A DNA stretch of 64,000 bases, from assembly GCA_043821645.1 (NCBI GenBank), contig JBDRCO010000037.1, forward strand, positions 32,001 through 96,000, in the 5' to 3' direction. Positions 15,355-18,263 of this stretch are shown in pieces; the stretch's first letter is position 1, and each line of letters starts with the position of its first letter. The translations under genes and the position numbers were made by a program. The notes under the pieces were generated by a model, which did no database searches, was not told the origin of the DNA, and saw only the letters and a program-made list of their open reading frames with translations. This DNA is from Pseudomonadota bacterium (GTDB taxonomy: Bacteria; Myxococcota; JACRCW01; JAFGSX01).

Positions 15355-16683
15355 CTAGGCCGGCGTTTTTTTCTTCTTCGCGCGGCTCCTTCCCGGAGCC
15401 CGGCTGCGGGGCCGAGCTGGGGAACTCCGGGCAGGTCGTGCGGGGGTCAGGCCCAGACGCATCTCGATGATCGTGTGCACGAGCTTCTCGGCGAAGTCGA
15501 CGGCGTGCATCACCTTGTCCAGGTCCACGTGTTCGAGCGTGTCGTCGGGAAGGTGGTAGTGGGCGGCCGTTCCCAGCCGTCGGTCCAGACAGCACAGGCA
15601 GATCGCATCGTAGCCGTTGGCCAAAAAGGCGGCGGCGTCGGAGCCTCCCACCGGCGGCTCGAAGCCCTTGACGCCTGCGAAGCGCGGCTCGCTGGCTACG
15701 ACCTTGTGGACGGCCTCGATCAGCCAGGCTGGTGTAGGTGTCTGTACGACCTCTCCCTCGCCCTGCAGAAAGACCAGCTCGCCGTTGCCCAGCATTTCCA
15801 GCGACAGGCCCACCGTGTTCTGCGGCGACCATTGATCCCGCTTCGCCTTCACCAGGGCGTCTGCGCCGCCCATGCTCGCTTCCTCGCAGCCCGTGGCGGC
15901 GAAGACCAGCTCGACCTCGGGTGGCTTGACCGCGGCGAGGCGCAGAGCCAGCACAGGCAGGGCCGCCACTCCGGTGAGGTCGTCGTTGGCGCCGGGCACG
16001 ATCTGGTTGCGCAGGCAGACCTCGGCCGTGGCCAAAAAGGCGACCAGGCCCGGAGTGCCAAGCAGCCACTCGAGCGGTCTCAGGGGCCAGGTGAGTGGGC
16101 CGAACACCATGCGCAGCAGGTCAAAGCCTGCGAGTGCGAACTGGGTGTTGGTGGCCAGGGCCAGCGGTCGGTCGAGGAAGGGTAGGGGGTTCGCACGTTC
16201 ATCGCCACTGAGGGCGTCGACGACCCGGGGGTTGAAGACCAGACCGGTGAAGGCCGCGTCGAGGTGCGCGTTGAGCACGATGCGCAGCTTCGGCTCGCCC
16301 TCGGCCGGCAGCACCGCCAGCACATTCTGTGAAGGTTTGAAACCCAGCATACGGCGCAGCAGATATGCCCGGCGCGTCGAGTCCAGGCGGTAGGACAGGC
16401 CCGCCAGCAGGTGCAGTGGCAGCGCCAGGTGGGGTGCCACACCGGAGATCGCGGTGCCCAGGCTGCCCAGACCGAAGTGCAACGCAATGTTGGCGTAGAG
16501 GTTGTCGTTAAACTCGAAGCCCTCACTCCAGGATTCCAGTCCGAGCCTGGCAAACGCATCCTGCACGATGGTGGCTGCGCGCCGCTCGTCCTCGCTGGTC
16601 GGCTGGCGGCGGGGACACTCGTCGACCACACGCTCGATCAGGTCGCGGATGTACGCGCTCTCGTCGGCGATGGACTGGGGCAT
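15355..16683 (-). CDS. M28-family metallopeptidase with internal membrane segments
   Basis: NAHLDA, GANDDLTGVA, GCEEASMGG, SDA, HYHLPDDT; start ATG 16683 with RBS GGAGA. Confidence 0.85.
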   Translation of the reverse strand: MPQSIADESAYIRDLIERVVDECPRRQPTSEDERRAATIVQDAFARLGLESWSEGFEFNDNLYANIALHFGLGSLGTAISGVAPHLALPLHLLAGLSYRLDSTRRAYLLRRMLGFKPSQNVLAVLPAEGEPKLRIVLNAHLDAAFTGLVFNPRVVDALSGDERANPLPFLDRPLALATNTQFALAGFDLLRMVFGPLTWPLRPLEWLLGTPGLVAFLATAEVCLRNQIVPGANDDLTGVAALPVLALRLAAVKPPEVELVFAATGCEEASMGGADALVKAKRDQWSPQNTVGLSLEMLGNGELVFLQGEGEVVQTPTPAWLIEAVHKVVASEPRFAGVKGFEPPVGGSDAAAFLANGYDAICLCCLDRRLGTAAHYHLPDDTLEHVDLDKVMHAVDFAEKLVHTIIEMRLGLTPARPARSSPARPRSRAPGRSRAKKKKTPA

Positions 16684-16750: not shown

Positions 16751-16776
16751 CTGGACCACCGCCCGGTGGTCATCAG
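16751..16776 (-). promoter_or_regulatory. Candidate bacterial SECIS element
   Basis: CUG-(AU bulge)-GACCACC-GGGC-GGUGGUC-CAG; G-first apical loop begins 17 nt after in-frame UGA 16784-16782. Confidence 0.6.
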
Positions 16777-17174
16777 TGGCTTCAACCCACCTTGCCGCAG
16801 GTCGCGGCAACATGCGGTTGAAAGTAGGACTCGAAGAAGGCGTCACCCAGGGATTCGCGGGCCAGCAGCGGCTCGACCTGCTGCAGCTGTCCCAGCCAGT
16901 ACTGCGCGATGCGCTGGTTGGGGTGCTGCTCGGCCAGGACCCGGATCAAGGGAACAGCCAGCGGCCGCTGGTACGCGTCCCACAGTCTCCGAATGGCGTG
17001 GTTGTAGGCATCCGGCTGGGCGTCGAGCGAACGTCGCGCGATGGCCTCGAGCAGCGGGGCCACGTCGCCGTGAGCAAGGGCACGCGCGATGGGGCGCTCG
17101 AGCCCTGAACCCAGTACGCGCCAGCCCACCAGGACCATGGTGACGAGGAGGGCAATGGCGATGACGGTGCTCAT
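16773..17174 (-). CDS. Membrane-anchored helical protein; candidate selenoprotein ending CGKVG-U-SH (133 aa; 16782..17174 if UGA is a plain stop)
   Basis: N-terminal TM MSTVIAIALLVTMVLVGW; TGC GGC AAG GTG GGT TGA AGC CAC TGA TGA; SECIS-like hairpin downstream. Confidence 0.65.
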
Positions 17175-17188
17175 GACGGGTGCGCGGA

Positions 17189-18166
17189 TCAACCGCGACG
17201 GGGTTTCTCGGGCTTGTTGACCGGGTTCGCGGGAGCCTCGCCGCGCAACACCCTGGCCACGTTGTCGACGACACGATCACCCATGGCCAGGCGAGTCTCG
17301 CGGGTGGCACTGCCCAGGTGCGGGACCAGCACCACGTTGTCGAGGCCAAGCAGGCGTGGGTCGATGTCCGGTTCTTGCTCGTACACATCCAGACCCGCCG
17401 CCGCGATCCAGCGTCGCACCAGGGCGTCGGTCAGGGCTTCCTCGTCGATGACAGGCCCGCGTGAAGTATTGACCAGCACCGCGTTGCGCTTCATCCACTT
17501 CAGGTTGTCGGCGTGGATCAGATGGTAGGTCTCCTCGGTCAGGGGCACGTGCAAGCTGACGAAGTCGCTGTGCCTGAGCAGGGTCTCGAGGTCGACCTCG
17601 CGGTCACCCTCCAGGGCCTCGACGTTGTCGCCAGGGCCCACGGTGTACAGCACCTGCATGTCGAAGCCATGCGCTCGCCTGGCAACAGCGCGGCCAATGC
17701 GGCCGTAGCCCACGATACCCAGGGTCTTGTGGTGCAGGTCGACACCGAGCAGCAGATCCAGCTCCCAGCCCCGGAACGCGCCCGAGCGAACCAGGCGCTC
17801 GCCCTCGGGGACCCGGCGGGCTGCAGACAGCATCAGGGCAAAGGCCATGTCTGCCGTGCTGTCGGTGAGCACATCGGGTGTGTTGGTGACGTGGATGCCC
17901 TGCCGTTCGGCGCAGCCGAGGTCGATGTTGTTGACGCCCACGGCGTAGTTCGCGATGACGCGCAAACGCGGCAACCTGGCGAGCACGGACTCGTCGACGA
18001 TGTCATCGAGCAGGCAGACCAGCGCATCGGCCTGGGCCAGGTCGGGGTGACCCTTGCGCAGACCCTCGACGCCGATGTCGCGTACCTCTCCCAGGGCCTT
18101 CAACTGCTCCAGCGTCGGGGGCAGCAGCTGATGGGTGACCAGGATCAATGGTGCGGTGGCGTTCAT
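17189..18166 (-). CDS. D-isomer-specific 2-hydroxyacid dehydrogenase (glyoxylate reductase / D-glycerate dehydrogenase)
   Basis: NYAVGVNNID, NTPDVLT, GIVGYGRIG, NTSRGPVIDE, LDVYEQEP, PHLGSAT. Confidence 0.93.
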   Translation of the reverse strand: MNATAPLILVTHQLLPPTLEQLKALGEVRDIGVEGLRKGHPDLAQADALVCLLDDIVDESVLARLPRLRVIANYAVGVNNIDLGCAERQGIHVTNTPDVLTDSTADMAFALMLSAARRVPEGERLVRSGAFRGWELDLLLGVDLHHKTLGIVGYGRIGRAVARRAHGFDMQVLYTVGPGDNVEALEGDREVDLETLLRHSDFVSLHVPLTEETYHLIHADNLKWMKRNAVLVNTSRGPVIDEEALTDALVRRWIAAAGLDVYEQEPDIDPRLLGLDNVVLVPHLGSATRETRLAMGDRVVDNVARVLRGEAPANPVNKPEKPRRG

Positions 18167-18263
18167 GGCGCCCGACTTTAACAGAACTGGCGCACGGGCC
18201 AATCCGCTTTTGTCGAACCTCGTCGTCGTATCGGTGGCGCGCCAATTCGGCTAGCCTGGCGCC

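Follow-up and report, generated by a model that had tools for sequence, protein, structure and literature searches.

Where does translation end in a small gene whose first in-frame stop codon is followed two codons later by another stop, and then by a hairpin? The question is raised by a candidate gene on the minus strand of contig JBDRCO010000037.1, of which we analysed positions 32,001-96,000. This stretch of 64,000 nucleotides (nt) is referred to as the window, and coordinates are given within it. An initial annotation of the window had proposed that it encodes a single-pass membrane selenoprotein of 133 residues with the C-terminal sequence C-G-K-V-G-U-S-H, where U is selenocysteine (Sec). 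Taken together, the conserved TGA, a covarying hairpin, homologs with Cys and the Sec-insertion machinery of the host genome speak for this proposal. We consider it very probable that the gene encodes a 133-residue selenoprotein with the apparent stop decoded as Sec, because a UGA or a Cys codon is present at the site in every sequenced relative, the hairpin downstream of it covaries, and the host genome has a full Sec-insertion set.

The candidate gene and its first stop codon

The ATG at 17174, which matches the start positions of the homologs in the alignment, opens a frame of 130 codons (MSTVIAIALL...HVAATCGKVG; Met1-Gly130, 16785-17174) that is followed by a TGA at 16784-16782, the codon putatively read as Sec131. 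Reading through this TGA adds AGC CAC (Ser132-His133, 16781-16776), after which there are two consecutive TGA codons (16775-16770), the first of which (16775-16773) would be the true terminator and the second of which occupies 16772-16770. The predicted partner of Sec131 in a C-x4-U motif is Cys126 (TGC, 16797-16799). A hairpin resembling a selenocysteine insertion sequence (SECIS; 16751-16776) lies at and past the true stop. In the window copy it consists of a lower stem (CUG, 16776-16774; CAG, 16753-16751), an AU bulge, an upper stem of seven base pairs (GACCACC, 16771-16765; GGUGGUC, 16760-16754) and an apical loop, GGGC (16764-16761), the first G of which is separated from the UGA by 17 nt. 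Rereading of the minus strand showed that the initial annotation had described the open reading frame (ORF), the TGA, Ser-His, the double stop and the hairpin 17 nt on exactly.

Conservation of the TGA and of the extension

Nine homologs were found when 60 related genomes were searched with the protein sequence. When 401 genomes of the phylum were searched with a profile, 24 of them, the window's own genome included, proved to carry the family. It is present in 16 of the 18 genomes of one taxonomic family, in all six of another and in one of the four of a third. According to the genome-collection record titles the carriers are uncultured Myxococcota, Myxococcales or 'Deltaproteobacteria' metagenome-assembled genomes (MAGs), and three further carrier MAGs are labelled Proteobacteria, Gammaproteobacteria and Gemmatimonadota, respectively; all family members known at the DNA level come from MAGs. 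The first stop is TGA in each of the 24 genomes of the phylum sample that carry the family and in each of 19 genome-collection loci, those in the three MAGs with other labels included.

Removal of identical 63-nt stretches reduced the 43 loci to 28 distinct rows. In all 28 the TGA stands directly after C-G-x-x-G, and the C-x4-U spacing with both flanking glycines is kept. The extension past the TGA comprises two sense codons in 27 loci and three in the remaining one, and the true stop that closes it is mixed (TGA in 15, TAG in nine and TAA in four). Among the codons of the extension there are synonymous variants (AGC/AGT, GCG/GCT, GGC/GGG and ACC/ACT), as would be expected of translated codons. 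At 16 related loci, where the local GC content is 48-75%, only 38 of 93 neighbouring ORFs of at least 200 residues end with TGA. The TGA form recurs across 17 genera of the phylum sample and in other phyla, and the mean column identity of the protein body is 62% in our alignment A1. According to the initial annotation, a selenoprotein gene should have homologs in which the codon after CGxxG is consistently TGA and is followed by a conserved hairpin. This is what we found in the 28 distinct loci; the opposite pattern, mixed stops after CGxxG and no hairpin, was not seen, the TGA being invariant and the hairpin covarying.

The copies in G402 (locus L094, labelled Gammaproteobacteria) and G401 (locus L096, labelled Gemmatimonadota) share 80% DNA identity, confined to the 439 nt of the gene, and have unrelated flanks, a pattern suggestive of gene transfer and not of a duplicated contig. 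A near-identical contig from one public DNA run, possibly the window's own source, has no differences across the site, and comparison of an RNA run with the window stretch gave no match.

A covarying hairpin downstream of the TGA

The 28 rows were aligned using MAFFT and align cleanly around an almost invariant loop. Covariation was scored on the seven base pairs of the upper stem and two outer positions, and compared with 500 shuffles and with slid controls in which the 3' partner was moved by one to three columns. Standard pairs were present in 83.7% of the cells compared to 67.6 ± 1.9 after shuffling, and changes on both sides in 43 cells compared to 14.8 ± 3.0, a number reached by none of the 500 shuffles. 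The covariation score was 0.496, compared to 0.192 for the shuffled alignments and 0.08-0.16 for the slid controls. Compensatory changes were detected in six of the seven upper-stem pairs, with the closing C-G pair being invariant, and the two outermost tested positions are unpaired.

The stem is 6-8 bp long, the loop begins 17-21 nt past the UGA, and one loop G (alignment column 40) is the same in every row. As called by our hairpin script the loop is GGTC in 20 rows, GTC in three, GTT in two and GGGC in the window, and it falls in another register in two (L037 and L053). In the MAFFT alignment L037, L053 and two of the three GTC rows also have GGTC, and departures are confined to four of the 28 rows. 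A run of T residues directly after the stem was found at none of the 28 loci (L048 has TTTT seven bases later). The hairpin is therefore not an intrinsic (Rho-independent) terminator. Scanning against Rfam gave just two sub-threshold chance matches.

The SECIS of Escherichia coli fdhF is a short hairpin after the UGA with a conserved G(G)U opening its apical loop. A second reference is provided by the host genome itself, where the selD gene has a UGA followed by 12 nt and by GGGCCAGG-GGA-CCUGGCCC, with a GGA loop that is also without the U. A selD gene with UGA and the same layout is present in four of the five other family genomes examined (selD of G060 is without the TGA), and in the host and these four the SECIS has a stem of 6-8 bp and a GG-first loop approximately 19-20 nt after the UGA. 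The predicted geometry of the candidate hairpin is that of these validated-type SECIS elements in the same organisms. Like the fdhF and same-genome selD elements, it has a stem that begins approximately 10-13 nt after the UGA and covaries, and a G(G)U of the apical loop at 17-21 nt. Unlike them, it lies over and past the true stop rather than within the reading frame, and its window copy has a loop without U. Hence, of the 'textbook bacterial SECIS' of the initial annotation, the position, the G-first loop and the conserved structure stand; the loop of the window copy does not fit, being GGGC whereas the family consensus is GGUC.

By the established bacterial mechanism, with a ribosome positioned at the UGA, SelB with its Sec-tRNA(Sec) would bind the hairpin, and Sec would be inserted. 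With the stop only two codons further on, most of the SECIS would be untranslated, and it would be functional although it is situated mostly in the 3' untranslated region (UTR). The family may offer a clean natural case of a bacterial SECIS acting almost wholly outside the reading frame.

Homologs with cysteine at the position of the TGA

Of 1.84 billion representative proteins searched with a profile, 116 matched at E ≤ 0.001, 97 of them at E ≤ 1e-10. Among these 116 representatives, 62 end with C-x-x-x-G (CG-x-x-G in 58), which is the expected product of gene calling halted at the TGA, as checked in the DNA for the 28 loci. Another 13 continue past this point as CGxx[G/S]C..., six have other Cys-rich tails, and the remaining 35 are fragments, divergent sequences or weak matches. 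All 18 Cys forms that were aligned have a Cys at the column of the UGA. Cys homologs, which the initial annotation had named as a check, hence have their Cys exactly at the position of the TGA. The Cys forms have between three and six cysteines in Gly-rich tails with variable spacing (C-x2-C-x-C, C-x3-C-x-C, C-x4-C-x2-C and KSC repeats). For the corresponding DNA, a profile built from a subset of seven Cys forms recovered one locus, the alignment of all 18 being too diverse for searching; this locus ends ...CGRCGSCG-TGA and has no hairpin downstream.

Six representatives (P0052, P0055, P0057, P0064, P0068 and P0071) end with ...CG-x-x-S-S or ...G-G-S and not with ...CGxxG. These could be Sec forms with another Cys-Sec spacing, or forms without Sec.

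The source name of the 10 clusters looked up is in each case only 'hypothetical protein'. With 62 of the 116 clusters ending at Gly, public gene calls would truncate the family by three residues, probably including the working one.

Selenocysteine insertion machinery

The initial annotation had also pointed to the Sec-insertion genes, and all of them are present in the host genome above the curated cut-offs: selA (531 bits), selB (256 bits), tRNA-Sec (78.6 bits) and selD with an in-frame TGA. The host SelD is itself a selenoprotein, ...VCGAG-U-ASKLG (C87:204011-204937, minus strand, locus L010); a Sec-type formate dehydrogenase was not found in the host genome. Among the 24 family genomes, selA was detected in 22.

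A sub-threshold match to NF041211 (40.4 bits; cut-off 100) was noted at C37:243892-244092 (plus strand), on the same contig and outside the window. It holds an in-frame TGA inside an open frame of 426 codons and may represent another selenoprotein gene of the host genome.

Alternative explanations for the TGA

How far could the pattern arise by chance? The host genome has a GC content of 66%, and TGA, its commonest stop, ends 10,300 of the 14,391 open frames of at least 200 codons. Among these 10,300 frames, a hairpin of at least 6 bp with a G-first loop 15-22 nt downstream is present in 284 (2.8%), and the next in-frame stop comes exactly two codons later in 127 (1.2%). All features combined are found in eight frames genome-wide, and only the candidate gene among them gives a protein-like translation. 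At these chance rates a single genome is unable to decide about recoding. On the window sequence alone the pattern is within reach of chance, and it is its conservation in 28 of 28 distinct loci that puts it beyond chance.

If the TGA were a real stop, Gly130 would be the last residue of the protein, the second stop would be meaningless, and the hairpin would belong to the 3' UTR as a conserved element with a terminator, stability or regulatory role. Such a reading agrees with the frequency of TGA as a stop and with the 2.8% background of similar hairpins, with a local fold that is no more stable than shuffled sequence, with the 62 of 116 representative clusters in which the called protein stops at Gly, and with G402, which carries the gene and has no selA or selB match. 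It leaves unexplained why TGA is used at 28 of 28 loci when only 38 of 93 neighbouring genes use it, why the second stop, of mixed identity, comes exactly two codons on in 27 of the 28, why Cys occupies the aligned position in the Cys forms, and why the loop sequence is kept while the stem covaries. Nor does it account for the missing T-run after all 28 stems or for the geometry shared with the same-genome selD SECIS elements. We therefore regard termination at this TGA as very improbable. That the TGA genes are decaying or mis-assembled copies, either pseudogenes or genes in which a Cys codon was missequenced, would be in keeping with the MAG origin of all DNA-level members. The same TGA is present in 28 distinct sequences from 17 genera and other phyla, the body is well conserved (62% mean column identity, A1), and the near-identical public contig has no differences at the site. 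This conservation pattern effectively refutes decay or misassembly, to which we assign a negligible probability.

There are several observations that weigh against decoding as Sec. The window copy has the loop GGGC, without the U kept by other members, an oddity that is softened by the host selD loop, which is also without U. The folding of the 71-nt hairpin region equals that of dinucleotide shuffles (z = 0.08), and folding energy alone hence gives no support. The missing hairpin in the Cys forms rests on a single DNA locus, and related genomes are non-independent samples. No selA match was obtained in two family genomes with completeness values of 86% and 74%, of which the former has a Sec-type selD. 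In the phylum sample selA was detected in 296 of the 401 genomes (a tally that includes the unpublished G195), and because it is so common its co-occurrence with the family discriminates weakly. Finally, G402 has the TGA form, the hairpin and selD, with no selA match and a best match to the selB model (170 bits) that is below the cut-off.

Predicted topology and fold

The protein was modelled using AlphaFold2 on an alignment of 73 sequences (A2) with a mean predicted local distance difference test (pLDDT) value of 92.5. The model has an N-terminal helix, residues 2-21 (17112-17171), predicted to be transmembrane, followed by eight short helices arranged as a helical-repeat domain; in the tail (residues 131-133) pLDDT is below 50. 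On average there are 0.01 Lys and Arg residues ahead of the hydrophobic segment and 3.0 among the 15 residues that follow it, and in all 73 members the number is higher after the segment. By the positive-inside rule this gives an N-out orientation, from which we infer that the domain and the tail face the cytoplasm. Trp65 and Trp93 are invariant, and Arg70, Ala73, Glu101, Pro102, Phe113, Pro120, Ala123, Cys126 and Gly127 nearly so; Cys126 is invariant in A1 (10 of 10 sequences) and at least 90% conserved in A2.

Searched with a profile, the PDB sequences gave a designer PPR protein as the best match (E = 1.1e-5, 28.7 bits; no single stretch passes alone), Pfam TPR_16 matches one of the 73 members (E = 0.0059), and the leads in the Protein Atlas are TPR clusters at 0.87-0.90, values too low for naming a family. 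The soluble body of approximately 100 residues is confidently modelled as a helical domain, which may be PPR/TPR-like.

Genomic neighbourhood

In the window the gene is flanked on the same strand by an upstream 2-hydroxyacid dehydrogenase gene (17192-18202; Pfam 2-Hacid_dh_C, E = 7.9e-58), the stop of which is 14 nt before the ATG, and downstream by genes for an M28-family peptidase (15358-16683; Peptidase_M28, E = 1.8e-20) and a VWA protein. The dehydrogenase appears to be glyoxylate-reductase-like, with glyoxylate reductase as the best NCBIfam match, below the cut-off. We scanned 43 neighbouring proteins from 11 other loci, five further loci being left out where the ORF calling had missed the target gene. 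No M28 or VWA domain was detected among these 43 proteins, and the window dehydrogenase is 29% identical to, and not orthologous with, the phosphoglycerate-dehydrogenase-like protein of the f24 genomes. The 'redox/proteolysis envelope module' suggested by the initial annotation is hence unsupported: the neighbourhood is not conserved, and the domain and tail are predicted to be cytoplasmic.

Other surroundings recur within groups. In the f24 genomes the gene is directly downstream of serC (match over the cut-off), of a phosphoglycerate-dehydrogenase-like gene, or of both (L072 6465-8770, L075 4710-5798, L078 5709-6914 and L076 3541-5040). SerC is the phosphoserine transaminase of serine synthesis, and serine is the precursor of Sec; the adjacency may be a coincidence. 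In the f4 genomes the gene is situated beside 3-hydroxyacyl-CoA and acyl-CoA dehydrogenase genes (fatty-acid oxidation) on the other strand.

Possible function of the tail

We envisage that the membrane helix would anchor the cytoplasmic PPR/TPR-like domain, that this domain would provide a docking site for a partner at the membrane, and that the flexible Gly-rich tail, C126-G-K-V-G-U131-S-H, would act as a thiol-selenol 'claw'. Judged by the composition of the tail, the Cys/Sec pair might well bind or hand over a soft metal or metalloid ion, a role we favour, short of calling it probable, because the Cys forms replace the single Sec with three to six cysteines at variable spacing. Near-terminal Sec residues have been discussed as possible metal ligands (PMC13188914). 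The distant relatives P0112, P0114 and P0079 have long tails rich in Cys and Lys (...GGGCCCGGGGAKSCKSCKSCK), which we take as the strongest hint at metal-ion binding by the tail.

The tail could instead be a redox centre, with Cys126 and Sec131 forming a selenenylsulfide switch or relay at the membrane, as in the tails of thioredoxin reductase and SELENOS. Among the Sec forms, the C-x4-U motif is retained with its flanking glycines (CG..G in 58 of 62 representatives; 28 of 28 loci), the tail is disordered and hence mobile in the AlphaFold2 model, its predicted location is the reducing cytoplasm, and most uncharacterized prokaryotic selenoproteins are thought to be redox-active (PMC13188914). 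The Cys forms, with three to six cysteines at variable spacing, do not have the two-Cys pair, which would be unusual for a redox dyad, and there is neither a thioredoxin-like fold nor a redox partner gene nearby. We consider a redox role possible and somewhat doubtful. Two null results count against assigning either function: Foldseek gave no match in the PDB at E ≤ 0.001 (best E = 1.2, to TPR proteins), and no partner gene was conserved across taxonomic families in the 11 loci scanned. The C-x4-U and multi-Cys forms would provide a tractable contrast between one selenocysteine and several cysteines.

Relation to known selenoproteins

Searches of Pfam gave no family for the protein, with only a sub-threshold match to DUF1198 (E = 0.082), no match to SELENOK or SELENOS at E ≤ 0.1, and no family common to more than one of the 73 members. 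In NCBIfam release 20.0, which includes curated selenoprotein models, no relevant model matches the protein or the 10 members scanned. A 2026 review lists 119 prokaryotic selenoprotein families and subfamilies (Table 1 of PMC13188914), and by the descriptions in that table a membrane-anchored helical-repeat protein with C-x4-U is not among them. As far as the accessible parts of the source extend, the NCBIfam models of the three 'hypothetical protein' families of deep-Sep (PMC12013277) do not match the candidate. No description of the family was found in the literature on bacterial, groundwater or Myxococcota selenoproteins, where the lists of Haft & Tolstoy 2025, Deng et al. 2026 and BSepDB (PMC13326102) could include it; the study of Deng et al. 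reports unvalidated selenoprotein candidates from 44,000 groundwater MAGs (cited in PMC13188914). The initial annotation had recognised no known bacterial family, which holds for Pfam, NCBIfam and the 119 families of the review. The candidate is apparently the founding example of an uncatalogued bacterial selenoprotein family, and its recognition would add one entry to the approximately 119 in the catalogue.

Among the catalogued families, UXX-star families 1 and 2 (NF041114 and NF041211) and KCU-star (NF033934) have Sec at, or at most three residues from, the C-terminus (PMC13188914, Table 1). The candidate is like these in that its predicted Sec is near the C-terminus, that the true stop follows almost at once and that the SECIS is largely past the coding region. 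It is UXX-star-like in layout only, with U-x-x-stop in 27 of the 28 distinct loci. UXX-star family 2 differs in being represented by a glutaredoxin-like model of 71 positions, which matches other places in the host genome and not the candidate gene. Unlike both UXX-star and KCU-star proteins, the candidate has a body predicted to be a membrane-anchored PPR/TPR-like repeat, and its motif is C-x4-U.

LapB (YciM) is a membrane-anchored TPR adaptor with a C-terminal, rubredoxin-like metal-binding Cys domain. The candidate resembles it in the N-terminal membrane helix, the cytoplasmic helical repeat and the cysteine-based C-terminal end, all as predicted. It differs from LapB in its length of approximately 130 residues and its short unstructured Cys/Sec tail with no rubredoxin-like domain, and neither its structure nor its sequence gives a significant match (a LapB structure is at Foldseek rank 44, E = 3.4).

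The eukaryotic selenoproteins SELENOK and SELENOS have one N-terminal membrane helix, a cytosolic remainder and Sec two to three residues from the C-terminus, and SELENOS has an upstream Cys partner. The parallel to these two proteins that the initial annotation drew is valid for the architecture: the candidate has a predicted membrane helix (residues 2-21), a body predicted to be cytosolic by the positive-inside rule in 73 of 73 members, and the putative Sec at position -3 on a flexible tail. It does not extend to the sequence, in which there is no similarity, or to the body, which is modelled as a folded helical repeat and not as a disordered or coiled-coil segment; moreover, the hairpin is of the SelB type and stands beside the UGA, unlike the distant eukaryotic SECIS. 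As a speculative and rather unlikely extension, the family might be a prokaryotic functional counterpart of SELENOK and SELENOS that arose independently, a membrane-tethered adaptor that recruits a client or enzyme and of which the Cys-x4-Sec tail senses or relays redox or hands over a soft metal, metalloid or selenium, with Sec being interchangeable with a multi-Cys tail in other lineages. The match in layout with the eukaryotic selenoproteins K and S could show whether this design arose twice.

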